Positions 9,038 to 31,273 of a stretch of 61,107 nucleotides of DNA are shown piece after piece. A program made the translations under genes and the position numbers. The DNA lies in assembly GCA_049968235.1 (NCBI GenBank), contig JBMFRC010000018.1, positions 1 through 61,107 on the forward strand, given 5' to 3'. Each line of letters begins with the position of its first letter. Position 1 is the first letter of the stretch. Below the pieces are notes generated by a model. That model did no database searches and was not told where the DNA came from. It was given only the letters and a program-made list of their open reading frames with translations. The DNA comes from Candidatus Hydrogenedens sp. (GTDB lineage: Bacteria > Hydrogenedentota > Hydrogenedentia > Hydrogenedentales > Hydrogenedentaceae).

Positions 9038-12000
9038 TTATAGGTTTTTATGAAGTTTTGAAGTATTCCATGTGAGAAAGGTGGTCAGAGATATTAAAAC
9101 TATAAGGGTAATCATACCTATGGGATTTGAGATAGGAACTCCCTGAGTGTATTTTATTTCTACGGGTGTACTCATAATGGTCTCTTTTTCGTCAGAGACT
9201 TCTACCCAGTAAGTCCCCGCATCTTCAGGCGACATTGCTGTGATTATAAATTCAGGATAATCTTCGCCGATATTCTCTCCATCTTTTTTCCATTGATAAG
9301 AAATTTCGGGAATTCCACCTACTACTTCTACTCGTAATGTATATGTATCGCCATCAATGACGGTTGCATTTTCAGGTTGAAGAACGAACTGCATGTGAGG
9401 GTATATCCCCAAATTCGCATAATTGGTAAAGACAACTTCTTCTCTTGAATCACCTACCTGGCAACGATAAGAGCCGGTGTATGTGCTATCAATATTTGTA
9501 ATAGTCCATTCATTGGAATTGGGTCCTACGGGTGTTCCACCATTTTTTAGCCATTGAAAATTTAATTCTCCGATACCACCACTTACATTGAAAGATAGTG
9601 TAACAGTATCTCCAATATAATAATTTCCCCCTACAACATAGGATAGAATTTTTATCCGATTGGTTACTGTTTTGCTTTTCGGTTCAACCAAACTATTGCC
9701 CGCAGGGTCTGTTCCTGTATTCACAGTAATTGTAATATCTTCTCCATTGGTTAGATTTCCTGCGTTCCATTTTAACAGGTAATGTCCATCTTCAATTTTT
9801 TGTACAGTATCGGGAGTTGTATTCAGAGTTCCTTTTCCGGGACCGGAAAGGCTATACCTCGAAACAAGAGTCATAAGGGGTTCCATAGGTTCGGAGAAAA
9901 AGACACGAATATTTCGGAAGTCTACAACTCGAACATCCATTACATATGGGGGCACACCAATGCTGGAGCAGATAACTTTATTAAACTGTGAGTCAATCAA
10001 ATTACCGAAAGTATCGCGGACATTTTGTACTTCAATCTGTACCAAAGACCCCCCCTTCATTTCACCCGTATCCCATTCAAGAATATAAGTCATAGGTTCG
10101 GTGTCCTGAACAATGCTTGATGGATGTAAAGAAAGCGTCCCTTTTCCGGATGCTCCGGGAGGGTTACTCAATGTGTAGTTACCGATAAAGAATACAGATG
10201 AGCCCATTTCTTTACTGTAAGTTATTTTTAATGTTCGTTCATTTACTGCAGATAGGGATAAAGCACGGGGCAATATTACCTCAAAAGTATCTGAGGCAGT
10301 GTTGTTAAGAGGGTCTATGAGATTTCCTGCCAAATCCTGAACATTATTTACCTGTACGGTAACTTCCTGCCCCTCAGATATTTCTGTCCCAGTTGTCCAT
10401 GAAATGGCATAAGTCGAGGGGTATCCAGTTACTTTTTCCACAGTTGAAGGTGGATTGCCCGGAAGTGTATCTATCCACCACAAATAATTGAGAGGATTGA
10501 GGGCACTTTCATCACCGGTTTCTCTCATTGCTTCTGAAAAAATGATATGTATTAGACGAGGTCCTTTGACATCGATGGAGACTAATTGAGGGAAAAATCC
10601 ACCTAAACCACTACCTATATGTGTGGCACTATTGGGAGTGCCAATAGGATTTCCTTGTGCATCAAATACATTGTTTACTGTGATGGTTACATCTCCACCG
10701 TTTTTCATCTCGCCGGAGTTCCAATTCAGGCGAACATGCTTATTATCAAGCACAGTTACCTGTGAGGGATTTTCCGCAAGAGTCCCTTTGCCATCTCCGG
10801 ATATAATATAATTTGCAGTATCCTCCAATTCTGTTAAACGCATAGGTTCAGAAAATTCAACTTCAACTTCTAAAGGTTGTGTTACAGTTACTGAAACCAC
10901 ATAAGCGGGAGTAGCATCAATAACATGTACTAAAAAGGTTTTATCATAATGTAAACCCATCATATCCGTTGCCCATACCTGAACAGTTACATAAGGATTC
11001 TCACTTCCATTTAATGCTTCTGGTAAATCAACGACCAATTGATTTCCATCAAGACGAAAGGCGCCATTTCCATTTTGGACTAAATTTAATATATGAGGTT
11101 CCTCTGGGTCTGGGTCAACTACGGTAAATTCTGCAACAATCGTTCCTTCTTCAACATTGTCCAAAACCTCCATATCCTCCGGATCTGGGATTATATCTGT
11201 AGGGTTAAAAAATCCTTCATCTGCACCTATATCAGGCGATGCGTAAAATGGAGGTAAAGGTCTATTTTGTCCTTCAAAATCGATATTGGTTGTATCTGTT
11301 GTCCCTGAATGTCCTAATGCACCGCTACCTGTCATTAGTTTTCCTACATCATCTAATTTCGGGTCGGCATAAATCATGATTTGTTCATCCGGTGCTGATT
11401 CAAAACCACCTTTACCGTCTGCGGAATTACGGTTCCATGCTAAATTATTCCATTCAAACCCTATTTCCCAAACAGGTGTAATATTCGATGCGTTTGGAGC
11501 ATCGAATATCGTTCCAGCAGAATACAATATGTCTCCGGTCCTGCCATGAATAAGCCAATTTGTTACAGGGTTACTTTCAGGGGAGGTGAGAGTAACATGC
11601 CGCAGACGAATCGTAGCAAAGGCAGAAGGAAATAGCGTATCGCTAAAACCACGGGTATCTATATATGATGGGACACCACCTCCGTAGAATATAGTATTCG
11701 TAATGTTTAGTTCAGGACCATAATTTCCACCTATGGCACCGGATCGAAAAGTTCCAGCACCAAAGCCCCACCAGCAGGAATCCATCTCTAACACGACAGG
11801 TCCTGTTAATTCTCCGCCTAAAGAGGTAATGGCATACCCTACATACGGTCTGATTATCCCCTTTGCTCGATAAAATTTTATTGAGCCCCGCAAGATGCGA
11901 GCGTAAGTTCCGGTATTATTGGTCATACCGTCCATATCCACCCAGTATATCGGAGATGGTGTTATATCATCTGCGGTATCAAACCAATCTTCGCCTGGCT

Positions 12001-13045
12001 CTAATCCTAAAATTTCCACCCGAGCACCACTTTGTTGAAAATTAAAGGCTCGCTCTCCACACGCACCTGTAAACACAGGTTTGTATAACCGATACACATT
12101 TGGCGTAGTGTGCGTATCTTCACCTAATTTATCGAACAAATTTGCGTTATTACTTCGAAATGAACAATTATAAAAAACTACCTGCGACCCGCCATCACTT
12201 GCTGTAGGGCTATCTGCTTTTATCGCGATGGCACTGTCGGAATATGTGCTACTGCCTTCGGGGGCAAATATACATTGTTCTAAAGTCATTTTCACCACAT
12301 TTTTTAATGACAGTCGAGTTCCTCTACCCTTAGCATAACTAAAGTCTACATATCGCAATTGTGCCTCCATTATCCCTGTTCCATTCATTGGTCCTAACAC
12401 TATCAAAGGTAAAGTCTGCTCTACCTCGTCCCCTCCTAAGAACCGCACCATATAAAATTGATGCTTACTTGCGGGAATATTTTGTAAATAAATATAATTC
12501 CCGTTGGGTGCTCCTGGTGTTTCCACTGGCTCCCACACTCGCTCCTTCTTAATAAAATTTGCTTTCTCAACGATGAACACCCCATTCCCATTTATCGAAG
12601 TAGCTATCAGTGGAGAAGAATAGGAAGAATATAAAGCAATTCTGTTATATACTCCCTCGTCATAGCCGATTATCTTCAAAATCTTTCCTGTTGTCGAATT
12701 ATTACTAAATACAGGATGGTTATTGTCCGGTCGAATCTCCGGGCGAATGCCTGTGGCAGCAATTACTTCTATATCCCCGCTATCTTCCAGAACCAATTCG
12801 GGGACTTCAAAGTAAACACCTTCACTTTGACTGGGTCCTTGCCATTCTATCCGTATTGTATGATTTCCCGGATTGGTACCCGTTGCATGTGTCCATGCAT
12901 CAGATAATTGTTCAAATCCCCATTCATTGGGATTACCTGTTGAGCCATTAGGAGCACCTTCGTAAATGCGGTATAAATCTGCATGAATGTTTGAATATGA
13001 AAGGATTAAGACAAAGAATAAAACCATACCCACTCGCCAGTTCAT
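9038..13045 (-). CDS. Giant secreted surface protein (1335 aa): signal peptide, beta-helix-like region, multiple Ig-like/Big-like repeats, C-terminal TM anchor with basic tail
   Basis: N-terminal MNWRVGMVLFFVLILSYSNIHA. Repeated GG.G…YQW.K.G … G(T/S)Y…V.D modules (e.g. YTGSYRCQVGDSREEVVF; AGTYWVEVSDEKETI). C-terminus VPISNPIGMITLIVLISLTTFLTWNTSKLHKNL. Confidence 0.7.
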   Translation of the reverse strand: MNWRVGMVLFFVLILSYSNIHADLYRIYEGAPNGSTGNPNEWGFEQLSDAWTHATGTNPGNHTIRIEWQGPSQSEGVYFEVPELVLEDSGDIEVIAATGIRPEIRPDNNHPVFSNNSTTGKILKIIGYDEGVYNRIALYSSYSSPLIATSINGNGVFIVEKANFIKKERVWEPVETPGAPNGNYIYLQNIPASKHQFYMVRFLGGDEVEQTLPLIVLGPMNGTGIMEAQLRYVDFSYAKGRGTRLSLKNVVKMTLEQCIFAPEGSSTYSDSAIAIKADSPTASDGGSQVVFYNCSFRSNNANLFDKLGEDTHTTPNVYRLYKPVFTGACGERAFNFQQSGARVEILGLEPGEDWFDTADDITPSPIYWVDMDGMTNNTGTYARILRGSIKFYRAKGIIRPYVGYAITSLGGELTGPVVLEMDSCWWGFGAGTFRSGAIGGNYGPELNITNTIFYGGGVPSYIDTRGFSDTLFPSAFATIRLRHVTLTSPESNPVTNWLIHGRTGDILYSAGTIFDAPNASNITPVWEIGFEWNNLAWNRNSADGKGGFESAPDEQIMIYADPKLDDVGKLMTGSGALGHSGTTDTTNIDFEGQNRPLPPFYASPDIGADEGFFNPTDIIPDPEDMEVLDNVEEGTIVAEFTVVDPDPEEPHILNLVQNGNGAFRLDGNQLVVDLPEALNGSENPYVTVQVWATDMMGLHYDKTFLVHVIDATPAYVVSVTVTQPLEVEVEFSEPMRLTELEDTANYIISGDGKGTLAENPSQVTVLDNKHVRLNWNSGEMKNGGDVTITVNNVFDAQGNPIGTPNSATHIGSGLGGFFPQLVSIDVKGPRLIHIIFSEAMRETGDESALNPLNYLWWIDTLPGNPPSTVEKVTGYPSTYAISWTTGTEISEGQEVTVQVNNVQDLAGNLIDPLNNTASDTFEVILPRALSLSAVNERTLKITYSKEMGSSVFFIGNYTLSNPPGASGKGTLSLHPSSIVQDTEPMTYILEWDTGEMKGGSLVQIEVQNVRDTFGNLIDSQFNKVICSSIGVPPYVMDVRVVDFRNIRVFFSEPMEPLMTLVSRYSLSGPGKGTLNTTPDTVQKIEDGHYLLKWNAGNLTNGEDITITVNTGTDPAGNSLVEPKSKTVTNRIKILSYVVGGNYYIGDTVTLSFNVSGGIGELNFQWLKNGGTPVGPNSNEWTITNIDSTYTGSYRCQVGDSREEVVFTNYANLGIYPHMQFVLQPENATVIDGDTYTLRVEVVGGIPEISYQWKKDGENIGEDYPEFIITAMSPEDAGTYWVEVSDEKETIMSTPVEIKYTQGVPISNPIGMITLIVLISLTTFLTWNTSKLHKNL

Positions 13046-14606: not shown

Positions 14607-15893
14607 ATGAGAAAATCGTCACAGTTATCTTTATGGCAAGAGGAAAAAATCCTTCAGAATAAAGAGTCTTTGTTTAGTCCTATTAAAAATAAAAAAGTGC
14701 CAATACTTTTCAGAGAAACTATACCGGAAATACCTTCGACTACTTATGGTTCCTTTGGGATTTATAAATATCCGGCGAAATTTATTCCTCAGGTAATAGC
14801 ATTTATCTTAAAGGAATACACAAAACCTGGAATGGAAGTTTTTGACCCTTTTGCAGGCTATGGCACAGTGGGAGTTGTATCAAGAATTTATGGGAATCCA
14901 TATGAATTGTGGGACTTAAACCCCCTTATAAATACGATTCATAATACTGCGAGAATGGAATATCCCAAAGTTAACTTATGCGAACTTTTAAATGAAATTA
15001 AAAACTCAAAAAAAGAATTTATTCCCAATTGGTCTAATTTGAACTACTGGTTCCCCGAGGAATTCCTCTATGTATTATCAACATCATGGGGTTTTATTTA
15101 TTCTTTAGAGGAAAAGTTGAAATACTTGTTTCTTATCCCTTTATTAAAAGTTACGAAGTATTTTTCTTATGCAGATGAGAAGGTGCATAAGTTATATAAA
15201 TCGAAGCATTCTAAACAAAAGATAACGGAATTAGTAAAGAAGGATTGGAAAACGATTTTTTATAATATGCTTGAAAAAGAAGTAGGAAAGTTACAAAGAA
15301 GACTTTTTGAAAATCAATTATTAAAACCACAAAATATAAAATATAGAATAAGGTCAGGGATTGACACCTTAAAAGAAGAATTGGATAACGAAGTGGATGT
15401 CTTAATTACCTCTCCCCCTTATTTACAAGCACAAGAATATATTCGTTCAACGAAATTAGAACTTTTTTGGCTTGGTTATGATGAAACATATATTAAAGAA
15501 TTAAGCAAAAAAGAAATTCCTTATTGTACGGTTCCGGAGATTGACATTCATTCGCAAACATTTTATAAATATAGAGAACAAATAAAAGAGCACCATTTAT
15601 TATTGTTATACGACCGTTATTTTCATGGAATATTAGGTACTTTTTCTCGATTAGGAAATAAAGTTAAAAACTATATGTGTATTTTTGTAGGACCTGCGAA
15701 AATCCGGACGACCTCCATACCGATTGACGATATTATAATTGAGCATTTAGAGAAGATGGGGTGGCATCACGAGATAACCTATGTTGATAGAATTGTTTCG
15801 CGGGTAATGTTCGAGTCGAAAATAAATCCTGCTTCGGGAGAAGAGGATAGCAGAATAAAAACCGAACATTTGATAATTCTAAAGAGAGGTTAA
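14607..15893 (+). CDS. DNA amino-methyltransferase (N6-adenine or N4-cytosine), alpha-like motif order (motif I, long spacer, motif IV)
   Basis: Motif I FDPFAGYGTVG at about residue 80; motif IV DVLITSPPYLQAQEY at about residue 270. Confidence 0.75.
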   Translation: MRKSSQLSLWQEEKILQNKESLFSPIKNKKVPILFRETIPEIPSTTYGSFGIYKYPAKFIPQVIAFILKEYTKPGMEVFDPFAGYGTVGVVSRIYGNPYELWDLNPLINTIHNTARMEYPKVNLCELLNEIKNSKKEFIPNWSNLNYWFPEEFLYVLSTSWGFIYSLEEKLKYLFLIPLLKVTKYFSYADEKVHKLYKSKHSKQKITELVKKDWKTIFYNMLEKEVGKLQRRLFENQLLKPQNIKYRIRSGIDTLKEELDNEVDVLITSPPYLQAQEYIRSTKLELFWLGYDETYIKELSKKEIPYCTVPEIDIHSQTFYKYREQIKEHHLLLLYDRYFHGILGTFSRLGNKVKNYMCIFVGPAKIRTTSIPIDDIIIEHLEKMGWHHEITYVDRIVSRVMFESKINPASGEEDSRIKTEHLIILKRG

Positions 15894-15896
15894 TAT

Positions 15897-16877
15897 ATGA
15901 TACCCATAAAAAAGGGGGATATTAAAAACAGTGCAAAATTTAAAACCGTATTATCCACTTTGATTAGAGAACAACAGGAAATTATTTTTAATGAGAGTAA
16001 AATGTATTTTGAATTTGACGAATTGGGGGATTTATTACTTTCTGCTTGCAGAATGAATGATTTTGACATAGTTTTTTCCGAAGGGAAAAGAACTTTCTTA
16101 AATAACAAGAATCTTTTATCATGGATTTATGAAAAGATCATTCCTAATACGGTTATAGTTAGAATTGATGATGAAGATATTATTAGATTACTGTTATTTA
16201 GTATGGAAATTACATATCAAATGTTTTTGGGGGGAACAAGAGCAACGACAACCGCAAAAGGTTTTCGAGAAAGACGAAGAACATTTGAATCTATTCTGGT
16301 TGACCAATTTACAGGGAAATTAGGTGAAGTTATGCTTAAAAAATTTTTGGAGAAGAATTTTGTAGGGAAAAAGGTTGAACTGGATTGGGAAATATCGAGA
16401 CAGATAGAGAAATACAGAACAGATATTGTAAATTCAGAGAAAAAAATAAGTATCAAATCGTCGCCATCTTTAGGGGGGATATGGGCGGAAGCGGATATAG
16501 GTTATGATTATGGAATTATGGTGAAATGTTCTGTCCCTCAGCAGCCTATTTTGCAATTTTTCGTTGAAGTTTGTGGTTTTACAAGGCTTTTAAATTTTGC
16601 TGAGGATAAAATTCCTTCTTCGGATACCTTGTTTAGTAAATACTTAAATAATATGAGGGAGAGAGTAAAAAAATACAAATGTGGCGAAATACAAACCGAC
16701 CTAAAGGCTATTATTTGTGGATATTTTAATACAAAGAATTTTATGCCTGTTGAGCAAGGTATTGAACTACCTTATTTAGGAGTTATAAGAGAAAAAAGAT
16801 ATTTAACGCCTATAAATACATTGAAATGGCGAAAAGAGGAATGGAAAGAATTTTTTATTGAAGCGAAAATTAGATAG
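15897..16877 (+). CDS. Hypothetical protein, candidate cognate restriction endonuclease (no recognisable family)
   Basis: Starts 3 nt after the methyltransferase stop on the same strand. Low GC like the methyltransferase. Possible degenerate PD-(D/E)xK-like segment (DFDIVFSEGK), not confirmed. Confidence 0.3.
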   Translation: MIPIKKGDIKNSAKFKTVLSTLIREQQEIIFNESKMYFEFDELGDLLLSACRMNDFDIVFSEGKRTFLNNKNLLSWIYEKIIPNTVIVRIDDEDIIRLLLFSMEITYQMFLGGTRATTTAKGFRERRRTFESILVDQFTGKLGEVMLKKFLEKNFVGKKVELDWEISRQIEKYRTDIVNSEKKISIKSSPSLGGIWAEADIGYDYGIMVKCSVPQQPILQFFVEVCGFTRLLNFAEDKIPSSDTLFSKYLNNMRERVKKYKCGEIQTDLKAIICGYFNTKNFMPVEQGIELPYLGVIREKRYLTPINTLKWRKEEWKEFFIEAKIR

Positions 16878-20702: not shown

Positions 20703-22442
20703 TTATTCCCAACGCGGGGTGATACTCTCACCGTAAGAAATAGGCGCTTCTACTTCGGGCAGTTTCACTTCAATTTCCAGGTTATCCAATAATGAACCTT
20801 CTGCTAAATAGAGGTCAATCAGAGCCTTTTCATACGAAATTTGTGCTTGCAGTTCCATCGTTTTTGCCATTGTATAATCTGTTTGCACCTGCAATACACG
20901 CCAACTTGTGCTTATCCCTAAACGAAGTCGTTTTTCTTCTGCAATAACATTGGCTTCTTGTAGTTTTCTTGCCTGACGATTACTTTCCACAAGAATGCGA
21001 TTGGTTTCTACATTCCGAATAGCGAGGTGCACGCCCATCATAATGGATTGTTCTATTTTCTTTTTGCGTTCTTCCATTTCTCGTTTGGTAAGTCGGGCTC
21101 TCTGAAAGGCTCCTCTACCCGCACGATTTCCAATAGGGATAGTGGCTTTTATACCATACGTATAATAAGTTTCATCATCATCACGAATGCCATAAAACAT
21201 TTTTGTAAGAGAACGGTCTCTCCCTCCCTGACCATAACTGCCGATTATATCCAATTGAGGGAGCATCTCATTTTTTGCCTGTAACATCTGAATGTCTGCA
21301 ATATCTATTTGTAAATCTGCCATTGCAATTTCCGGTCTATTTTTTAGTGCTTTTTCGACAGACTGGTCAAGATCAGGAGCAAGTTTTGAAAGGTCAAAGT
21401 TCTCATTTTCAAAACTATGGGGTCGGTCAGTAGGGATAATGAGAACTTTGGAGAACATATTTTCTTCTCTTAACATAAGTAAGTTTTTCAACATATCTGA
21501 AGCACTTTCTAACTGTGCTTGTGCGGCAACCAATTCACTTTGTCGTGTTGCAACCCCTGCTTTTGCCTGTAATACTTCTATGTCGGCAGCAGTTCCTATT
21601 TCTCTGCGTTTTTCACTAATAGATAAAAGTCGTTCTGCATTTGCTAGTGCTTCTTCTCGCACCTTCACATTTTCCATTGCCCCGACCAAATCCCAATAGG
21701 CTTTTATAATCTCATTTACGGTGTTCATAACAGTCATTTTTAATTGGTTTTCTCCAATTTTTTCGGATTTCTTTGCCATTTCCAATCGTGCAGTGTTTAC
21801 TTTGATGCCAAATCCTCGTAATAGGGGCTGGGTCAATGTAAATAAGAGTTGACCACTATAATCTTTTGTGAAATTGGAGAAGGAAGTCTCTTCAATACTT
21901 GTGTTAAAACTAACTGCATATTGAGTTCCTAACTTGAGCTTTCCCCCTAAACTTGATTCAAAGGTAGTTTGTTTTGTATCAAAACTGCTTACACCTGCGT
22001 ATGCCCGAATTTGTTGGCTTGCAAGGATAGATGCGTAGTTATGTTGGAGTGATGTTTGTAAAAATGGGTCAAACATTCCTTTCGCTGTTAATTGGTCTGC
22101 CTGTGCTTTTTTTGGTTCTAACCCACTGACGATAATATCCGGGTTTTGTTTCAATGCCATTTCTATACACTCCTGTAAAGACATACGTAATGCCGAATTA
22201 GGACCCCGTCGTTCTTCTGTTACCTTACGGAGTGCATCTAAGTCAATTAAATCTACGGATATTTCTTTTTTTAAATTTAGCTCCGTATTTCCTGATGATG
22301 TATCTTCAATAGCGTTCGGTTCGTTAATCGAATCTATTGTTTGTGTTTTAGCCGTATCCTGGGAGAAAACCGGATAGGTTAGCAGTAGGAAAACAATAAT
22401 GGGCATAAAAAACAAATAAATTTTTCTTTTTATCATAAACAT
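20703..22442 (-). CDS. TolC-family outer-membrane efflux protein (outer-membrane factor)
   Basis: Signal peptide plus tandem coiled-coil/barrel repeats with LSISEKRREIGTAADIEVLQAKAGVATRQSELVAAQAQLE, typical of this family. Confidence 0.8.
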   Translation of the reverse strand: MFMIKRKIYLFFMPIIVFLLLTYPVFSQDTAKTQTIDSINEPNAIEDTSSGNTELNLKKEISVDLIDLDALRKVTEERRGPNSALRMSLQECIEMALKQNPDIIVSGLEPKKAQADQLTAKGMFDPFLQTSLQHNYASILASQQIRAYAGVSSFDTKQTTFESSLGGKLKLGTQYAVSFNTSIEETSFSNFTKDYSGQLLFTLTQPLLRGFGIKVNTARLEMAKKSEKIGENQLKMTVMNTVNEIIKAYWDLVGAMENVKVREEALANAERLLSISEKRREIGTAADIEVLQAKAGVATRQSELVAAQAQLESASDMLKNLLMLREENMFSKVLIIPTDRPHSFENENFDLSKLAPDLDQSVEKALKNRPEIAMADLQIDIADIQMLQAKNEMLPQLDIIGSYGQGGRDRSLTKMFYGIRDDDETYYTYGIKATIPIGNRAGRGAFQRARLTKREMEERKKKIEQSIMMGVHLAIRNVETNRILVESNRQARKLQEANVIAEEKRLRLGISTSWRVLQVQTDYTMAKTMELQAQISYEKALIDLYLAEGSLLDNLEIEVKLPEVEAPISYGESITPRWE

Positions 22443-22663
22443 TTCCTCTTGTTTTTTATAAAGATTATAAATTGTTTGCTTTACAAAAATAAAAGATATG
22501 CTAAAATATAATTAAAATTTCTATCAGTGTAATAAAGAAAGGTATCACATTCAAAACGATAGACTCTTATTTTATTATGATAAAATAAAATCAAGTTATG
22601 TAATTATTACAAAATATTCTGGCAAATAGGATATAGAGAATCTGTTCGGTTTACATATATGTT

Positions 22664-23719
22664 ATGAAAATTGATAATCCAAAAATGAAAGTTTTAATTT
22701 TGTGGGGGGTAGTCCTTGTTAGTTTTGTGCTTTTTTGGATTTGCCACACTTATATTACTAATTATCAGAATTTCATTGAGCCTCAGAATTATTTATTACG
22801 AGCAGAATACTATTTACAGAATGGAAACAAAGATAAGGCTTTACATGAACTTGAATTTGGAATGAATACTTTTAGACCTGTGAGTTCTGAAGCACTGCTT
22901 TGTCTTATGAAAATAAAAAAAGGTATTTTGGATAAAAATGAATATAACGAATTAGAGAAGAAACATCAAATAATCGTAACTCTTGAGAATTGCACTTCTT
23001 CTGAAAATTTGCAATTAGATACTAAACTATTGAATACATCCGGAATTTCTTTACCTACATTGTCAAAACCCACTCAATCCATGGTTCTGTCTATGTGGAA
23101 ATTATTAACACGAAGTACTCTGAAATGTATGCAAAATGGAAATCTATCATGGAAACAAATATTGAACTTTTTATACTACTCTGGAGGTATTTTCTACCTT
23201 AACTCTAACATTGGTGATACAGGGTTTGTGATTGATGATGATGTTTTTGTAATCAGTGAAGGAAGCGAAGAGGGTAGTGGAGCACAAATATGGTTTCAAG
23301 GAAGAAATTTTGGGGGACATCGGAGAGGTTTTTATGTGTTGATATTAACTCCGCCTCCATGTAAAGTATATCGCTCTGACCGATTTGATGTTTGGGATAA
23401 CTATAACGAATCCATCAGGATGACCCGTTTTCTGGAAGAAGTTCCTGAAGGATATATAGGTATTTTTGCTGTGGCAGATGAGGCATCGGAAAATATGACA
23501 GAGGAATTGGAACGGATGCTTTTTTCTTTTGGTTTTGCCCCAAAAACCTATGTCCGAAGAGAAATGAAATTTTTTGGATATGGCTATGCCTTTTCGGGTA
23601 TCGGAGTAAAAGGAGCAGTTTCAGGAACGGCAATTCAAAACTGGGCTGAATATGACCCTTCAAAGAAAAAAATTCCATGGACTGTTTGTGGTGTGATGAG
23701 AGGGGAAAAGAAGCAATGA
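22664..23719 (+). CDS. Signal-anchored protein with TPR-like region and C-terminal ILEI/FAM3 (PANDER-like) domain
   Basis: N-terminal TM VLILWGVVLVSFVLFWI. The C-terminal ~110 aa (RRGFYVLIL…FDVWDN…PEGYIGIFAVADEASENMTEELERMLFSFGF…FFGYGYAFSG) follows the ILEI-domain pattern as I remember it from FAM3C. Confidence 0.45.
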   Translation: MKIDNPKMKVLILWGVVLVSFVLFWICHTYITNYQNFIEPQNYLLRAEYYLQNGNKDKALHELEFGMNTFRPVSSEALLCLMKIKKGILDKNEYNELEKKHQIIVTLENCTSSENLQLDTKLLNTSGISLPTLSKPTQSMVLSMWKLLTRSTLKCMQNGNLSWKQILNFLYYSGGIFYLNSNIGDTGFVIDDDVFVISEGSEEGSGAQIWFQGRNFGGHRRGFYVLILTPPPCKVYRSDRFDVWDNYNESIRMTRFLEEVPEGYIGIFAVADEASENMTEELERMLFSFGFAPKTYVRREMKFFGYGYAFSGIGVKGAVSGTAIQNWAEYDPSKKKIPWTVCGVMRGEKKQ

Positions 23720-24786
23720 ATTATCAGGAATGGTCATACATAACAGTCTGTATAATTGCGTTTGTTACAACTTTATTACTTGTTCCTGTTTTTCGCTGGG
23801 TTGCTATAAAATTAGGTGTCGTGGATATGCCTGACCAGAAGAGAAAAGTTCATAAAAAGCCGATACCTTATTTGGGAGGTATGGCTTTTTACATATCTTT
23901 TTTAGTGGCATGTTGTTTTATCGAGTGGAGGTATCCTCAATATTTTGATGAGAAACTTACTATCATTGCGGTTGTGGGTACTGTGATTGTATTAATGGGT
24001 TTGTTAGATGATTTAGTATCCATACCTGCAAGCAGAAAATTGGTTTTTGAAATACTTTTAGGTGTTATACTTTATTATTGGGGTTTTAAAACGACGACCA
24101 TAGCCCATCCTTTAGGTGGTGTGTGGAATGTAGGTTTGCTTGCATTATTAATAACACCCTTATGGATAGTGGGTGTTATGAATGCTATAAATTTCTCAGA
24201 CGGTCTGGATGGGCTTGCCAGTGGTCAGGTAGCTATTTGTTCTGCAACTATATTTGCCATATCTTACTATAATGGACAGATATTCAGTTGCCTGGTAATG
24301 AGTATTTTATTGGGTTGTACCCTTGCCTTTTTAGTCTATAATTCTCATCCGGCATCTGTATTTATGGGTGACACGGGAGCCTTGTTTTTAGGTTTTGTTT
24401 TAGGATGTGCGACATTGGTAGAAAGAAAAAAAGGTGTTACCATAGTTGCTTTAACTGTGCCGATGGTAGTGCTTGCAGTTCCGTTTTTAGATACCTTTTT
24501 AAGTTTTTTGCGAAGGATGCAGAGAGCTAGCAGGGGTGAGTTTTTTATGCCCGACCGTGACCATCTTCATCATCGGTTACTCAAATTGGGGTTATCCCAA
24601 CGACAGGTCGTTTTTTCTTTATATTATTTTTCTGTATGCATGGGTTTCCTTGCGTTTATAACCTCCCTTATTCCAACTCAATATACATTTCTGGTTCTTT
24701 TCCTTGTTTGTATGTTAATTGGAATGGGTGTCCTTCTTCTTCATTTTATAGAAAGTATTATAGAAAAGAAAGAAGAACAGAAATAG
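23716..24786 (+). CDS. Polyprenyl-phosphate N-acetylhexosamine-1-phosphate transferase (MraY/WecA family, glycosyltransferase family 4)
   Basis: 10-11 TM segments; MNAINFSDGLDGLASG motif. Start set at MNYQEW, overlapping the upstream stop by ATGA. Confidence 0.85.
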   Translation: MNYQEWSYITVCIIAFVTTLLLVPVFRWVAIKLGVVDMPDQKRKVHKKPIPYLGGMAFYISFLVACCFIEWRYPQYFDEKLTIIAVVGTVIVLMGLLDDLVSIPASRKLVFEILLGVILYYWGFKTTTIAHPLGGVWNVGLLALLITPLWIVGVMNAINFSDGLDGLASGQVAICSATIFAISYYNGQIFSCLVMSILLGCTLAFLVYNSHPASVFMGDTGALFLGFVLGCATLVERKKGVTIVALTVPMVVLAVPFLDTFLSFLRRMQRASRGEFFMPDRDHLHHRLLKLGLSQRQVVFSLYYFSVCMGFLAFITSLIPTQYTFLVLFLVCMLIGMGVLLLHFIESIIEKKEEQK

Positions 24787-24808
24787 ACAATAGGATTTCC
24801 AATGACTA

Positions 24809-24830
24809 TTTCAAAATTCAGAATTTTGAA
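24809..24830. terminator. Perfect 10-bp inverted repeat TTCAAAATTC-A-GAATTTTGAA between convergent genes; candidate bidirectional terminator
   Basis: The palindrome sits in the 80-bp gap between the WecA-like gene's stop and the DapA-family gene's stop. The stem is AT-rich, so the hairpin is only moderately stable. Confidence 0.35.
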
Positions 24831-24866
24831 CTGTGATTTCAACCCTATGATGGTATTATTAGAAAA

Positions 24867-25763
24867 TTAGATTAGGTTAAGACTTTTCATTGTTTTTTCT
24901 AATAATTGGATTTCCGATTTGGAAAGTTCGCGATGTGGAGGCCGAACAAATCCAGCATCAATCCCCCTTAGTTTTAATGCATGTTTGAATATAGCTATGT
25001 TTTTACCATATTGCAGAACCTGGCATAGTTTTGTTAATTGAGATTGATAAATCCATGCTTCCGGTAACTTGCGTTTTATCACATTTTCATAAACACCCAG
25101 ATAGATTTCCGGGGCGACATTGGAAGTACCAGAAACAGCCGCCTGAACCCCTGCTAAGAAAGCCTGATAACCATATTCATCTACTCCATTTATTACGGTG
25201 AAAGATGTCGGTTTTTGAATGAGTAATTCGGAGAGGTTAACCATATTTCCTGTGCTGTCTTTTATACCCACAATATTTCTATGTTTTTGGGCTAACTTAA
25301 TGATGAGTGAGTTAGGTAGGAAGTTTCTTGCACAGGATGGGATGTTATAAAGCAGTATGGGTATCTTAGGGAATTCAGAGGCAATAGTGGAGAAATATTT
25401 ATACAAAGCATCTTCATCATAATAATAATATCCCGGTGCAACGATACCCACAGCATAAGCGTTCTTTTCAACTGCATGAGCAGTAAGTTCTATGGTTGAA
25501 TGTAAATCAAAAGTTCCCGTGTGAGGAATTACCATTATCTTTTTGTGAACATATTTTAGGACACTTTCCAAAAGTTCCTTTCTTTCCTCAACAGACATTA
25601 CAAGTCCTTCACCGGTAGTGCCTCCAACAAATAGTCCGTGAACACCCTTTTCTTGAAGGAAGTGGATAAGTTTTTGTAATCTGGAATGGTCGATTTCTTT
25701 ACCTCCTTTGGTAAAAGGGGTTAGGTTTGCACAAATAATACCACGTATGTTTTTTTGTTCCAT
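24867..25763 (-). CDS. DapA/NAL-family class I aldolase (4-hydroxy-tetrahydrodipicolinate synthase / N-acetylneuraminate-lyase family)
   Basis: GLFVGGTTGEG and Schiff-base lysine context VGIKDSTG. Confidence 0.75.
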   Translation of the reverse strand: MEQKNIRGIICANLTPFTKGGKEIDHSRLQKLIHFLQEKGVHGLFVGGTTGEGLVMSVEERKELLESVLKYVHKKIMVIPHTGTFDLHSTIELTAHAVEKNAYAVGIVAPGYYYYDEDALYKYFSTIASEFPKIPILLYNIPSCARNFLPNSLIIKLAQKHRNIVGIKDSTGNMVNLSELLIQKPTSFTVINGVDEYGYQAFLAGVQAAVSGTSNVAPEIYLGVYENVIKRKLPEAWIYQSQLTKLCQVLQYGKNIAIFKHALKLRGIDAGFVRPPHRELSKSEIQLLEKTMKSLNLI

Positions 25764-25800: not shown

Positions 25801-27180
25801 TCAGGGATACCTGTTCGGTCCCCATGATTTCGTATCTAACTGCTGTTTTTGAATAACAAGAGAATATGGGTCAATATCATTATTTACAAGAACGCCGGGT
25901 CCGATACATGAATATGCACCTATACGCACTCCTGGCATAAACATAACATTTACCCCTGTTCGGCAATAATCGCCAAGATATGTCAAATTTCCATGATAGG
26001 GGGGAATTTCCTGTCGTTGTTTACAGCGGATTTCTTTTATTTTATCATCAAACCTCCATGTAGCACTAATGGTTCCTGCTCCAATATCAACATGCGAACC
26101 TATTATACCTGAAATACAGCAGGTATGAACCATAAATACAGTGTCTAATGTGATACCGTAAAATTCTGCATTATGAAGTATTTGATTATACTCACCTATG
26201 ACTGAATTTTTATGAATTTTTGCAAATTCAGAAATATTTGTATTCGTGTTTACAAAAATATTTTCTTCAAGGAGTGCTCCACTGCTAATGTGACTATTTG
26301 TTCCAAGAATAAGATTTCCTTTTATGATAGTTCCTTTCTCAATTCTCCCGCCTTCATATATCCATAACTTTGCATTAGAGGAGATATCTGCTTCATTACT
26401 TACAAATGCGGATTTCTCTATAATGGAGCATTCCACATTTTCAAACACATCTGATAATGCTTTTTGGTTTGCTTCTAAGAAATCCCATGGATGATCAATA
26501 TCGACTATAAAATTATCAGCACATATACAAGACACTTCGCACTTCTTCTCCAGCATTACATCAATAGCAGAGACAAGGTTCCCTTCAGGAACAGGCATTG
26601 CCCCCAGAGGGGCAGAACGGACAATTCCGGGCTCACAGTCGAAGATTTCTTTTAATGATTTTGTTCTACCTATAAGAACCCCACAAAACCAGAATTCGGA
26701 GTTCTGTCTATCGAATAACAAATTATTTAGTTTATTGTCCATTCCTTTTTCTATAAATGTTGTATGCAGAGGGCATGGTTTTTGATTAGAGACTAAAATT
26801 GAAAATTCATTATTTTGTGCCCGATGTGTCTTTATGAAATGTGATAGGTTTCCTTGGTTAGTAACAATATCCCCATGAAGTATGATAGTTTCAGATGAAG
26901 AAGATGTCCCTAAAATAGAACGTATTACATCCGCAGGTGTGACATCATCTTTACTTCTCAGGAAAGATAATCCGCTAATGTCGTGTAAAGCATGCCGAAC
27001 ACTTTGTTCGAGATATCCTGTTGTTACAGTAATATCTTCAATTCCCGTTTCTTTTAATTGTAGAACAAGCCTTCGGATTATGGGTGTATTTAATATAGGT
27101 AGCGTTACTTTATTTCTAACCGTCGAGAAAGGGAAAATCCCCTCTCCACAGCCAGCAGTAAGGATAATTGCAGAAATCAT
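25801..27180 (-). CDS. Bifunctional-type sugar-phosphate nucleotidyltransferase with C-terminal left-handed beta-helix (hexapeptide acyltransferase) domain, GlmU-like architecture
   Basis: N-terminal MISAIILTAGCGEGIFPFSTVRNKVTLPI (NTP_transferase G-loop); C-terminal hexapeptide repeats (IGAYSCIGPGVLVNN etc.). Confidence 0.7.
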   Translation of the reverse strand: MISAIILTAGCGEGIFPFSTVRNKVTLPILNTPIIRRLVLQLKETGIEDITVTTGYLEQSVRHALHDISGLSFLRSKDDVTPADVIRSILGTSSSSETIILHGDIVTNQGNLSHFIKTHRAQNNEFSILVSNQKPCPLHTTFIEKGMDNKLNNLLFDRQNSEFWFCGVLIGRTKSLKEIFDCEPGIVRSAPLGAMPVPEGNLVSAIDVMLEKKCEVSCICADNFIVDIDHPWDFLEANQKALSDVFENVECSIIEKSAFVSNEADISSNAKLWIYEGGRIEKGTIIKGNLILGTNSHISSGALLEENIFVNTNTNISEFAKIHKNSVIGEYNQILHNAEFYGITLDTVFMVHTCCISGIIGSHVDIGAGTISATWRFDDKIKEIRCKQRQEIPPYHGNLTYLGDYCRTGVNVMFMPGVRIGAYSCIGPGVLVNNDIDPYSLVIQKQQLDTKSWGPNRYP

Positions 27181-28269: not shown

Positions 28270-29310
28270 ATGGAACCTTCTTTATATTCTGTGAATTTAA
28301 CGCGAGTAAATCAGCCAGGAAAAGTATGCCTTGAACTAAAAGGTTCTATCCTTATAATTCATAAGGAAAATTGGGTATCTAAATATTCGCTATATGTCCC
28401 TATCGAAGTTGTGAATATCGAAGAGGAGAAACATCGGAATTATAGGAAATTATGGGAAAGTATTCTTGGATTTATGTTAGCGTTTCTTCTATGTCTGCCC
28501 TTAAGTTTATGGTTTATATACAAACCCTTGTTTTATCCATACGACCTTCTTTGGGCTATTCCATTAATAGCTTTGTTCCTCTTTACATTAATGGTGGGCT
28601 TTTCGGGATTTTTTCGGTTTATTAAATTATATCCGGCAATTAGCCTGATTTTTCATCATCGTTCACAAATGATGAAGATGTCATTCTGGGTGAAACCCGA
28701 TATTCGGATGGCACTGGAAAAGTTAATAGCACGTATACATGAGTTAAAAAAGATATTGGAAACAGAAGGTTATATTCCATTAAAAGTATGTCCGATGTGG
28801 TTTCATTCCAAGCCATATCGTAAGTCTCTGGTAATGGGTTTTGCAGTAAGTTTTGTCCTATTCTGTATTATCACGGTAATTGTTGTTTGGCAGGTAGCAG
28901 GAGAATATGGGGAAAAAATATGGTGGGCATATAGCATTCTTCCTTTTCCGCCATTCATATCTGTTATTGGTGAGTATATTCGGAGAAAGTTCCTATGGGG
29001 GGTGCCTAAAGGTTTCAAAAAAGTGCGAAATGCCTTTGAAAAAGAAAATTATTCATCTGCTATTACGGAACTTCAAGAATTATTAAAAGAACAACCCGAT
29101 TTAGGAATGGCTCGTTTTTTATTAATACAGCTTTTGACCGAGAAAGGGGAGTATGACAACGCACTGAAACACTGTGAGGAATTTTATTTTCAGGAACCTT
29201 CATTAGCGACAGAAATGAAAACAACTATATGGTGGTTACGTTGTGTTCAGGAGCGAATGGAACATTTGACCGAGAAATCGCAGGATACAAAGAACATGGT
29301 TGAGGAATAG
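28270..29310 (+). CDS. Hypothetical polytopic membrane protein with C-terminal TPR-like helix pair
   Basis: About 4 TM segments and a C-terminal AITELQELLKEQPDLGMARFLLIQLLTEKGEYDNALKHCEEF. Confidence 0.4.
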   Translation: MEPSLYSVNLTRVNQPGKVCLELKGSILIIHKENWVSKYSLYVPIEVVNIEEEKHRNYRKLWESILGFMLAFLLCLPLSLWFIYKPLFYPYDLLWAIPLIALFLFTLMVGFSGFFRFIKLYPAISLIFHHRSQMMKMSFWVKPDIRMALEKLIARIHELKKILETEGYIPLKVCPMWFHSKPYRKSLVMGFAVSFVLFCIITVIVVWQVAGEYGEKIWWAYSILPFPPFISVIGEYIRRKFLWGVPKGFKKVRNAFEKENYSSAITELQELLKEQPDLGMARFLLIQLLTEKGEYDNALKHCEEFYFQEPSLATEMKTTIWWLRCVQERMEHLTEKSQDTKNMVEE

Positions 29311-29414: not shown

Positions 29415-30266
29415 ATGAAAAAAATTGTGATTTTTGGACATAAAGGGCAACTGGGAAGAGACCTTGTTAAATTGTTTCAATCGGAGTGTGAAGTTATTGG
29501 TTATGATTTACCTGAATTAGATATAACAAATCCGGATATTTATAAATTATTAGATGACCCTGCACCAGATTTGGTTATAAATTCATCGGCCTATACAAAT
29601 GTAGATATGGCAGAGAAGGAAATAGATAAATCGTTCCTTGTAAATGAAGTAGGAGCCCGACTGGTTGCGGATTTGGCAAATCAATGGGGAAGCCCAGTAG
29701 TTTATTACAGTACGGACTATGTTTTTGATGGAATGCAAAGGCGACCCTATCGAGAAGATGATATTCCCAACCCACTTTCCGTTTATGGTCGTTCAAAATT
29801 AGCAGGAGAAAAATCAGTTATTGATTATAATCCGAAACACTATATTTTAAGAACTGCATGGTTATATGGTCCCGGTGGAAATAATTTTATAGAAAAAATG
29901 ATTCAACGTTCACAAACAGCGGAAAAGTTAGAAATTTCCGATGATGAAATCGGCTCACCCACTTACACCTGGGACCTGGCGATAATGACAAAGAAAATTG
30001 TAGAAACGCAAAAATATGGATTGTATCACGCAGTCAATTCTGGCGAGTGTTCCCGGTATCATTGGATAAAGACATGCTTTGAATATTTAAATATTACTGT
30101 TCCTATTATACCCTGTTCCCGTGCTAAATTTGTGCTACCAGCTCCACGACCAGCTTATTCCGCCATGGATAATCGGAAAATTAGGGCAGTAATTGAATGG
30201 GAAATTCCATCATGGCGGGAATCTTTATTACACTATTTAGGAAGAAGGAGCGAGGAAATTAAATGA
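29415..30266 (+). CDS. rmlD: dTDP-4-dehydrorhamnose reductase
   Basis: MKKIVIFGHKGQLGRDL…YYSTDYVFDG…; the NAD-binding GxxGxxG and YxxxK signature are present. Confidence 0.85.
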   Translation: MKKIVIFGHKGQLGRDLVKLFQSECEVIGYDLPELDITNPDIYKLLDDPAPDLVINSSAYTNVDMAEKEIDKSFLVNEVGARLVADLANQWGSPVVYYSTDYVFDGMQRRPYREDDIPNPLSVYGRSKLAGEKSVIDYNPKHYILRTAWLYGPGGNNFIEKMIQRSQTAEKLEISDDEIGSPTYTWDLAIMTKKIVETQKYGLYHAVNSGECSRYHWIKTCFEYLNITVPIIPCSRAKFVLPAPRPAYSAMDNRKIRAVIEWEIPSWRESLLHYLGRRSEEIK

Positions 30267-31273
30267 AAAAAATACTTGTTACAGGTGGTGCTGGTTTTAT
30301 CGGGTCTGCATTTATCCGCAATATGCTGGACTGGTACCCGGATATTCATATAGTTAATCTGGATAAACTTACTTACGCGGGGAATCTGGACAACTTAAAA
30401 TCAGTAGATACTCGTCGTTATACTTTTATACATGGAGATATTGCGGATGCGGAAGTGATGCAACAGGCAATACAAGACTGTGATGCAGTCGTAAATTTTG
30501 CTGCAGAAACGCATGTGGACCGGAGTTTAATGGGTGCAAAAGATTTTCTCCGTACCAATGTGGAAGGGGTATATCAAATATTACTAAGTGCCAAGGGTAA
30601 TAATGTTAATAGGGTTCTTTTGGTCTCCACAGATGAAGTATATGGAAGTAGAGATGTCGGTTCTGCCTTAGAAACGGACACGATTTGTCCAAGAAACCCG
30701 TATAGTGCATCCAAAGCAGGAGGCGAACTTTTAGGGAAGGCATTCTTTGAATCCTTTAAATTACCTGTTCTCATTACTCGCGGATGTAATACTTATGGTC
30801 CCTATCAATATCCGGAAAAAGTTCTACCTTTATTTATTACCAATGCACTGGAAGGAAAACCATTACCTTTATATAAAGGGGGAGAATATAATATTCGCGA
30901 TTGGCTCTATGTAGATGACCATTGTCGTGCTATAGATTTTGTTTTGCGGAAAGGAACCCCCGGTGAGATTTATAATATTTCAGCAGGATTTGAAAAAGAA
31001 AATATTGAAATTACTCGAAAAGTACTTGAACTTACAGGTAAAGATGAAAGTTTAATTCAATGGGTTCCAGACCGTCCGGGTCATGATCGTAGATATTCTA
31101 TGAATTCGGACAAACTCCGTGCTTTGGGATGGGAACCAGAAGTATCATGGGAGGAGGGTATCCAGAAGACAGTTCAGTGGTATGTAGAAAATGAATGGTG
31201 GTGGCGACGGATAAAAGAAGGTGAATTTAAAAAATATTATGAAGAGCAGTATATAAAAAGGATAAACACATAA
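30263..31273 (+). CDS. rmlB: dTDP-glucose 4,6-dehydratase
   Basis: KILVTGGAGFIGS and catalytic YSASKAG; 4-bp overlap with rmlD. Confidence 0.9.
   Translation: MKKILVTGGAGFIGSAFIRNMLDWYPDIHIVNLDKLTYAGNLDNLKSVDTRRYTFIHGDIADAEVMQQAIQDCDAVVNFAAETHVDRSLMGAKDFLRTNVEGVYQILLSAKGNNVNRVLLVSTDEVYGSRDVGSALETDTICPRNPYSASKAGGELLGKAFFESFKLPVLITRGCNTYGPYQYPEKVLPLFITNALEGKPLPLYKGGEYNIRDWLYVDDHCRAIDFVLRKGTPGEIYNISAGFEKENIEITRKVLELTGKDESLIQWVPDRPGHDRRYSMNSDKLRALGWEPEVSWEEGIQKTVQWYVENEWWWRRIKEGEFKKYYEEQYIKRINT

Follow-up and report, generated by a model that had tools for sequence, protein, structure and literature searches.

In a 61,107-nucleotide stretch of DNA from Candidatus Hydrogenedens sp. (the window), a gene for a predicted signal-anchored protein with an ILEI/PANDER domain overlaps a gene for a family-4 transferase (GT4), which presumably, as far as its sequence can tell, initiates a polyprenyl-linked envelope glycan (Table 1). 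Considering the domain identities, the predicted fold, the overlap, and the phylum-wide conservation and specificity of the pairing, it is very likely that the two proteins work together, and we put at about 0.5 the probability that they form a functional, and probably physical, pair, in which the ILEI protein would face the periplasm, bind carbohydrate and serve the initiating transferase as a subunit or accessory. An accessory role in envelope glycan assembly had been proposed in an earlier note on this DNA; it is now well supported on genomic grounds, by a coupling that persists in all 12 loci compared while the other neighbours change. The domain labels of both genes are already in GenBank, and the new part is the comparative result.

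Table 1. Features of the ILEI-GT4 gene pair (positions in the window).
Feature	Position	Strand	Basis and remarks
ILEI/PANDER-domain protein gene, 351 aa, predicted signal-anchored	22664..23719	+	ORF, PF15711, homologues, GenBank entry
Single transmembrane helix, residues 10-31, conserved aromatic stripe W14, F21, F24	22691..22756	+	hydropathy, AF2
Helical domain, residues 40-172, about 7 helices, no recognisable family	22781..23179	+	
ILEI/PANDER (FAM3 / POMGnT1-stem) domain, residues ~176-345; Pfam core residues 221-296 (23324-23551)	23189..23698	+	HMM and predicted fold
Arg221, equivalent of POMGnT1 Arg129	23324..23326	+	HMMER alignment to 5ggj, offset +86
Asp272, equivalent of POMGnT1 Asp179	23477..23479	+	HMMER alignment to 5ggj
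Gly307, aligned with POMGnT1 Arg207	23582..23584	+	transitive alignment
Shine-Dalgarno-like, purine-rich GAGGGGAAAAGAAG, within the ILEI gene's 3' end and shortly before the transferase ATG	23700..23713	+	sequence
ATGA overlap: transferase start ATG 23716-23718, ILEI stop TGA 23717-23719	23716..23719	+	
Polyprenyl-phosphate sugar-1-phosphate transferase (PNPT, Glycos_transf_4), 356 aa	23716..24786	+	PF00953

The product of the upstream gene corresponds exactly to GenBank entry MGC8739168.1, described as an 'interleukin-like EMT inducer domain-containing protein' of Candidatus Hydrogenedens sp. It matches PF15711 (InterPro IPR039477) over residues 221-296 with 42.9 bits (gathering cut-off 27, E = 7e-11), and a precomputed PF15711 match was present in all of its 17 close homologues (44-100% identity); about 30 more distant full-length relatives share 17-31% identity with it. 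The earlier note had recognized an ILEI/FAM3 domain in the C-terminal ~110 residues. This was checked at the level of both the HMM and the fold, and similarity was found in both, so that the assignment stands, while the extent has to be corrected to a structural domain of ~170 residues. The ILEI domain is the best conserved region of the protein (37 of 155 columns reach at least 80%), and the helical domain is the least conserved. For this helical half, a structure search gave no confident relative, and the TPR-like stretch suspected there was not borne out, as Pfam returned no TPR family at E ≤ 1 and the best fold match to a TPR protein had a Foldseek E of 0.26. Polysaccharide co-polymerases (Wzz/PCP) have two transmembrane helices flanking a periplasmic domain; this identity was rejected for the ILEI protein, which has a single hydrophobic segment and gave no Wzz among its Pfam or fold matches.

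The hydrophobic segment (hydropathy 2.48) is part of the one helix that the AF2 model places at residues 6-38, and the charges around it agree with the signal anchor that had been proposed. Three Lys/Arg residues precede the helix and none is found in the 15 residues after it, although the bias is weak family-wide (89 vs 60). On the positive-inside rule, the protein is predicted to be of type II (N-in, C-out), with its ILEI domain in the periplasm. The aromatic residues of the helix are kept in most of the 39 members of the family set (W14 in 82%, F21 in 97% and F24 in 95%), which range from 17 to 70% identity to the window protein. Because most of these members are only 17-31% identical, the conservation of the stripe suggests a specific contact within the membrane.

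The downstream gene product is a PF00953 protein (E = 8e-38, 130.4 bits vs a gathering cut-off of 27), with MraY (1e-15) and DPAGT1 (1e-10) as its relatives in the PDB. The superfamily signature that it has in common with WecA/TagO/WbpL-type and MraY-type PNPTs (DD, NxxNxxDGxDGL, VFMGDxG, H(L/I)HH) is found at 24007-24012 (DD, residues 98-99), 24181-24216 (NAINFSDGLDGL, residues 156-167), 24358-24381 (VFMGDTGA, residues 215-222) and 24562-24573 (HLHH). The first three motifs are invariant in 12 orthologues; HLHH, which resembles the HIHH of WecA, is replaced by CIYH in two orthologues. Unlike the known enzymes, the transferase scores below all equivalog cut-offs and carries clade-specific substitutions: the paired transferases make up a distinct subclade, with Y52, F58, E112 and A222 at sites where the outgroup shows good to nearly invariant conservation. 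The NCBIfam models for WecA (TIGR02380, UDP-GlcNAc:undecaprenyl-P GlcNAc-1-P transferase; 128.7 bits vs a cut-off of 326.05) and MraY (TIGR00445; 85.8 bits vs 192.05) were both rejected. Because the WecA score is below cut-off and level with that of an archaeal MraY-family model (129.3 bits, also below cut-off), the sugar cannot be assigned to GlcNAc. Of the 'WecA-like GlcNAc-1-P transferase' in the earlier note, what remains is thus a PF00953 phosphoglycosyltransferase. It should be noted that GenBank starts this 'glycosyltransferase family 4 protein' at ATG 23677 (369 aa); the length of close cluster members (354-357 aa) and the overlap kept in all 12 loci favour the start at 23716.

The ATGA overlap between the two genes was confirmed, and the translational coupling claimed for them is real: a 4-nt start/stop overlap recurs in all 12 Hydrogenedentota loci (the window and 11 others), as ATGA or, in L001, GTGA. 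Within the 12 nt upstream of the ATG, 5 of the 11 orthologous loci have strings similar to GGAGG or GGGAG, and most of the others have shorter GGA/AGG strings. In the window, the pair is flanked by a divergent TolC-like gene upstream and by a convergent DHDPS-family gene downstream. A scan of 22300-25000 for promoters and terminators found no more sites than in shuffled sequence, and the operon limits were therefore drawn from gene orientation alone; on this ground, the best reading is that the ILEI and transferase genes form a two-gene operon.

The loci of the pair were located by a profile scan of genome contigs with an 18-sequence ILEI alignment. The order ILEI to GT4 was found in 12/12 of them (the window, L001, L002, L004, L006, L007 and L009-L014), while the identity to the window falls from 56 to 24% for the ILEI protein and from 86 to 50% for the transferase. 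The distant loci have no neighbour in common besides the pair itself, and the predicted periplasmic domains evolve much faster there than the transferase (24-33% vs 50-60% identity). As a negative control, 80 outgroup GT4 loci (30-43% identity) were taken from among the matches listed in a metagenome scan with the transferase alignment; in 56 of them the sequence upstream exceeds 1 kb, and tblastn and HMM searches found an ILEI-family gene beside the GT4 gene in none of these 80 loci. Compared with them, the ILEI-GT4 pairing is specific to Hydrogenedentota, and the suggestion that ILEI genes might be syntenic with wecA/wbpL in other bacteria was not borne out among the matches listed. A literature search found no paper on a conserved ILEI-GT4 pairing. 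All the pair loci are from one phylum, and shared ancestry adds to their conservation. The host organisms are uncultured, and the evidence on the pair is comparative throughout.

In the arrangement that we favour, the transferase would work on the cytoplasmic side of the inner membrane, where it would produce the initial lipid-linked sugar of an envelope glycan. The conserved transmembrane helix of the ILEI protein would pack against the transferase, and the helical and ILEI domains would project into the periplasm, where the ILEI domain, a lectin-type module like that of the POMGnT1 stem, of FAM3 proteins and of phage tail-fibre proteins, may bind a sugar on the lipid-linked intermediate after flipping, or one on the completed polymer. 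Glycan initiation would thereby be tied to events at the outer face: the ILEI protein might feed back on how the scarce lipid carrier is used, or might provide a scaffold on which later periplasmic steps take place. It is the topology, the contact, the sugar binding and the regulation or scaffolding that we infer here. Because the membrane is predicted to separate the ILEI domain from the active site of the transferase, any effect of the former on the latter would have to be indirect, and the ILEI domain could not act on the substrate as the stem of POMGnT1 does. In that human enzyme (PDB 5GGF, 5GGJ), the stem and a soluble GT-A catalytic domain belong to one chain and both lie on the luminal side, and what the stem binds is the glycan that the enzyme itself has made. 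Here the ILEI module is a separate polypeptide, with an additional ~130-aa helical domain before it, and its partner is a polytopic PNPT with a predicted cytoplasmic active site.

A narrower reading, which we regard as unlikely as it stands, sees in the ILEI protein a dedicated regulatory subunit of the phosphoglycosyltransferase, a periplasmic lectin that would sense flipped intermediates or finished polymer and tune initiation at the cytoplasmic face through its transmembrane helix. For feedback of this kind, which also belongs to the arrangement favoured above, there is a precedent in Pseudomonas aeruginosa, where the PNPT MraY was reported in 2024 to be feedback-inhibited by externalised lipid II, so that a product at the periplasmic face affects activity at the cytoplasmic face (PMC10914600). 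The logic would be the same here, but in P. aeruginosa the sensing site is proposed to be in MraY itself, with no accessory protein (PMC10914600). If this reading is true, the undecaprenyl-phosphate pool would be shared out with the help of a protein-based feedback device acting across the membrane, whose fold is otherwise known in animal signalling proteins and glycosyltransferases. Control of the first committed lipid-linked step of glycan synthesis, and of the sharing of its limiting carrier, is only beginning to be understood. If a PNPT does have an obligatory lectin-like periplasmic partner across a whole phylum, the coupling would reside in a separate protein, and could thus be dissected. 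No characterised WecA, TagO or MraY is known to us to have a dedicated overlapping lectin-domain partner, and a limited literature search found none.

A possible alternative, to which we give clearly less credit than to a physical pair, is that the two proteins serve the same pathway and are co-transcribed for joint production, but form no complex. The ILEI protein would then act as a membrane-tethered lectin in the periplasm, binding the finished glycan or organising it; it might, for instance, hold a surface polymer to the inner membrane or present one to the export or ligation machinery. The pairing, the overlap and the lectin-type fold fit this equally well, and the fast evolution of the periplasmic domains is what would be expected of a module that tracks a variable glycan. 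On the other hand, an aromatic stripe such as that of the helix, and so strict a 4-nt coupling, are seen more typically in stoichiometric subunits than in a free-standing lectin, and no other genes of a glycan pathway are conserved beside the pair.

Carbohydrate binding by the ILEI domain, which both these readings involve, was considered in the light of the sugar-binding role of Arg129 and its partner residues in POMGnT1 (PMC9802357, PMC9437275). Arg is found at position 221 in 36 of the 39 family members and Asp at position 272 in 33, and both residues are invariant among the close homologues. Position 307 was aligned through intermediates, from POMGnT1 (GWRDTWAFVGRKG) to P0096 (KFRMAHAIIGVKG), to the family consensus (GLRYSFAAIGVKG) and to the window protein (GYGYAFSGIGVKG); among the 39 members, the residue corresponding to Arg207 is Arg in 22, Gly in 8 and Ser in 2. 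The full R-D-R triad is retained by most of the deeper-branching relatives; P0019 and P0021 are orthologues that have it. The third residue has been lost across the Hydrogenedens clade, the window protein having Gly307 and both P0016 and P0017 a Ser. Of the residues that mark the POMGnT1 stem-like sugar-binding subtype, the window protein thus has the counterparts of Arg129 and Asp179, and Gly in place of Arg207, which makes sugar binding less certain for it than for its relatives.

This loss is a reason to consider that the ILEI protein might be a structural or stability chaperone of the transferase, in which sugar binding was lost within the clade and the ILEI domain came to serve in protein-protein contacts or in folding. 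A parallel would be offered by T4 gp35, whose ILEI-like domain has been described as part of a structural joint between tail-fibre rods (the 'kneecap'; bioRxiv preprint 10.64898/2026.03.06.709160). Nevertheless, we find this doubtful, in view of the two residues still invariant in the close homologues, of the ILEI domain being the most conserved part of the protein, and of the full triad in most deeper-branching relatives. Finally, it appears very improbable that the adjacency reflects a gene order handed down without any functional link, in which case the ILEI protein would have an unrelated periplasmic role such as the sensing or binding of environmental polysaccharides. The evidence does come from one phylum only, and Hydrogenedentota have many polysaccharide-degrading functions (in L011, a heparinase II/III-like gene adjoins the pair), but all the other neighbours have been reshuffled while the pair has stayed together, with precisely the 4-nt overlap, in loci of as little as 24% identity, and at L016, the one locus where the ILEI gene is a degraded remnant, there is likewise no transferase gene after it.

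The biochemical role of the ILEI/FAM3 fold in animals is still debated. FAM3A/B/C (PANDER, ILEI) and the GG domain of TMEM2/CEMIP share only 13-20% identity with the domain described here and are eukaryotic secreted or cell-surface proteins with no glycosyltransferase partner. The fold now gains a concrete bacterial context, beside glycan-biosynthesis machinery, which agrees with reports that the POMGnT1 stem and FAM3C bind carbohydrates. That the fold exists in the prokaryotic world is also indicated by phage modules (T4 gp35 of the long tail fibre; streptococcal Tal CBM_1), which resemble the ILEI domain with Foldseek BFVD E values of 2e-7 to 1e-4. The Arg and Asp are conserved in Tal CBM_1, for which binding to a host cell-wall polysaccharide has been proposed (PMC9437275). 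These modules differ in being parts of virion fibres rather than membrane-anchored cellular proteins, and are unconnected with glycan biosynthesis.

The recurrent polytopic ILEI proteins of ~900 aa were considered as possible GT-C enzymes, an identity that was set aside after Pfam, NCBIfam and PDB sequence searches returned the ILEI domain only. ILEI domains do recur both in glycan recognition, as in phage tail-fibre and receptor-binding proteins (PMC9437275), and beside glycan machinery, to which the domain is directly joined in P0055, an 823-aa fusion of PMT_2 (GT-C) and ILEI.

In the 61,107-bp Candidatus Hydrogenedens sp. MAG contig (exact GenBank protein matches MGC8739168.1 and MGC8739169.1), the stop codon of the ILEI gene overlaps the ATG of the transferase gene in an ATGA, as had been noted from the sequence. 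Since the TolC-family gene upstream is divergent and the DHDPS-family gene downstream is convergent, the two genes form a self-contained plus-strand unit. In GenBank the transferase begins at ATG 23677 (369 aa); this start is disfavoured, and that at 23716 is likelier, because the close cluster members have 354-357 aa and the overlap is kept in 12 of 12 loci. Residues 1-9 of the ILEI protein (MK.DNPK.K) are conserved among homologues, although one GenBank record begins at Met8 (344 aa).

Features of the contig around the ILEI-transferase gene pair
Feature	Position	Strand	Remark
Big_5 gene	9038-13045	-	1335 aa, Big_5 and Ig-like domains
Methylase-like ORF and 326-aa ORF	14607-16877	+	partial N6/N4 DNA-methylase match; 3-nt gap, then 326-aa ORF
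TolC-family gene	20703-22442	-	divergent, upstream of pair
ILEI gene	22664-23719	+	ORF, 351 aa
Transferase gene	23716-24786	+	356-aa ORF, ATG start at 23716
DHDPS-family gene	24867-25763	-	convergent, downstream of pair
Sugar-1-P nucleotidylyltransferase/acetyltransferase	25801-27180	-	archaeal type
346-aa ORF	28270-29310	+	weak TPR match
RmlD-like gene	29415-30266	+	
RmlB-like gene	30263-31273	+	

The sugar-nucleotide genes lie near the pair, outside the conserved unit, and in close relatives they are accompanied by the 346-aa ORF.

The predicted ILEI domain was borne out by the Pfam search (PF15711 at residues 221-296, E=7e-11, score 42.9 bits, cut-off 27). The AlphaFold2 model, built from an alignment of 17 homologues, is confident (mean pLDDT 88.6, pTM 0.85). 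In it, residues 6-38 form a single long helix at the N terminus, 40-172 a helical region and 176-344 a domain rich in beta structure. The helical half matched no Pfam family and no confident structural relative, so the label 'TPR-like' given to this stretch in the earlier note is unsupported. Conservation across the family is lowest in the helical domain and highest in the ILEI domain.

The downstream enzyme belongs to Glycos_transf_4 (PF00953, E=8e-38) and contains the motifs DD, NAINFSDGLDGL, VFMGDTGA and HLHH. Its proposed identity as a WecA-like GlcNAc-1-P transferase was not supported: the WecA model gives it 128.7 bits, far under the cut-off of 326, an archaeal MraY-family model 129.3 bits, and the bacterial MraY model 85.8 bits (cut-off 192). 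On these sequence models it is a polyprenyl-phosphate sugar-1-phosphate transferase (PNPT) of unassigned sugar specificity, not a certified WecA. Compared with 80 outgroup GT4 enzymes among the matches listed, the paired transferases have Y52 where the outgroup has R (42/79), F58 where it has I (69/79), E112 where it has Q (77/80) and A222 where it has S (67/80). The outgroup conserves these sites well or almost without exception. Two orthologues (L002:7062-8147 and L004:5018-6100) carry DKDCIYHRLL at a position which is H-L-H-H in the window (24562-24573) and in eight other loci, and H-I-H-H in L014; we equate this position with WecA's HIHH loop, so the recognition of sugar or nucleotide may have shifted in some members of the clade.

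The POMGnT1 stem binds beta-linked GlcNAc via Arg129, Asp179 and Arg207, which are also conserved in FAM3 proteins (PMC9802357, PMC9437275). In the HMMER alignment with chain 5ggj_A (offset +86), R221 of the ILEI protein aligns with Arg129 and D272 with Asp179; these positions are Arg in 36 and Asp in 33 of the 39 family members. Arg207 lies within GWRDTWAFVGRKG, which lines up gap-free with KFRMAHAIIGVKG from a bacterial ILEI protein, and through the common IGVKG motif this region matches GLRYSFAAIGVKG in most family members and GYGYAFSGIGVKG in the window clade. The equivalent position is Arg in 22 of the 39 members, Gly in eight and Ser in two. With R221 and D272 kept and the third position replaced, the window protein therefore retains two of the three canonical residues; this clade-specific loss is new here.

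The only hydrophobic segment of the ILEI protein (residues 10-31) is flanked by three K/R on the N side and none on the C side, which predicts a signal anchor with N-in, C-out orientation and would place both the helical domain and the ILEI domain on the periplasmic side. To our knowledge, all characterised ILEI domains are extracytoplasmic. Because the charge bias is weaker over the whole family (89 vs 60), we put this topology forward as something that we infer. Within the transmembrane helix, W14 (82%), F21 (97%) and F24 (95%) are kept across the 39-member family and share one face, as expected of a specific intramembrane contact.

The best-supported reading, to which we give a probability of about 0.5, makes the ILEI protein a subunit or accessory of the initiating transferase that faces the periplasm and binds carbohydrate. 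The POMGnT1 stem recruits its enzyme to the enzyme's own product, whereas here the membrane is predicted to separate the lectin module from the active site, so that mechanism is not directly applicable. Two roles appear more plausible: the protein might sense flipped intermediates or the finished polymer and adjust initiation, for which MraY feedback offers an analogue (PMC10914600), or it might be a scaffold for periplasmic steps. Beside the conserved helix face, a free-standing lectin acting in the same pathway as the transferase is a possible but less likely candidate; with two of the three binding residues in place, a chaperone that has lost sugar binding seems unlikely.

A word-indexed search found only 17 close relatives of the ILEI protein (44-100% identity), of which all those with a named source are labelled Hydrogenedens or Hydrogenedentes. 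An exhaustive profile search added about 30 full-length relatives (~350 aa, 17-31% identity) and about 290 proteins sharing the ILEI domain alone. Eleven further loci were examined, four from exact look-up of close homologues (L001, L002, L004, L006; L003 and L005 duplicate L002 and L004) and seven from a genome scan (L007, L009-L014), the latter mostly labelled Hydrogenedentota, with two 'uncultured Nitrospirales' and one 'uncultured bacterium'. In all eleven the transferase gene directly follows the ILEI gene with an overlap of exactly 4 nt, preceded in most by purine-rich, Shine-Dalgarno-like strings. In the distant loci the ILEI protein is down to 24-33% identity with its window counterpart and the transferase to 50-60%. 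TolC, DHDPS and all other window neighbours are absent there, and when the flanks were compared all against all, nothing besides the pair proved to be in common; among the flanking genes are a radical-SAM gene, GT1 glycosyltransferases, a heparinase-like gene, an RND pump and a type-I methylase. That the pairing is a mere relic of gene order is thus set against these loci as a very improbable account. No ILEI-family gene was found by tblastn or HMM search in the 80 metagenomic outgroup GT4 loci among the matches listed (30-43% identity; 56 with >1 kb upstream). In a Hydrogenedentes MAG (L016:3536-3790) the ILEI gene survives only as a C-terminal remnant with a frameshift, and no transferase gene adjoins it or lies downstream; either the whole unit has decayed or the assembly is poor.

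GenBank already names both genes by domain ('interleukin-like EMT inducer domain-containing protein' and 'glycosyltransferase family 4 protein'), so the ILEI match is not new. Among the literature searched, no paper reports the pairing of an ILEI protein with a PNPT in bacteria; what appears new is the phylum-wide, translationally coupled pairing, and the distinct architecture of membrane helix, unclassified helical domain and ILEI.

Other prokaryotic architectures include a PMT_2 (GT-C) membrane glycosyltransferase fused to two ILEI domains (P0055, 823 aa), a single predicted transmembrane segment followed by DUF4330, TPR and ILEI (P0067, 411 aa), RHS repeats with two ILEI domains (P0057, 1334 aa) and five ILEI domains in tandem (P0040, 968 aa). 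A recurrent polytopic class of ~900 aa (P0082, P0090, P0096, P0116, P0074 and the 903-aa Myxococcota protein L015:2769-5480) has a C-terminal ILEI, no other recognisable family and, in five proteins analysed, 7-11 predicted transmembrane segments. The domain is also frequent among phage tail-fibre and receptor-binding proteins.

Elsewhere in the window, the methylase-like ORF is a possible restriction-modification or defence partner of the 326-aa ORF after it, which matched no Pfam family. In several relatives (L001, L002, L006) the Big_5 gene is syntenic with the TolC-like gene; in the window other genes intervene.
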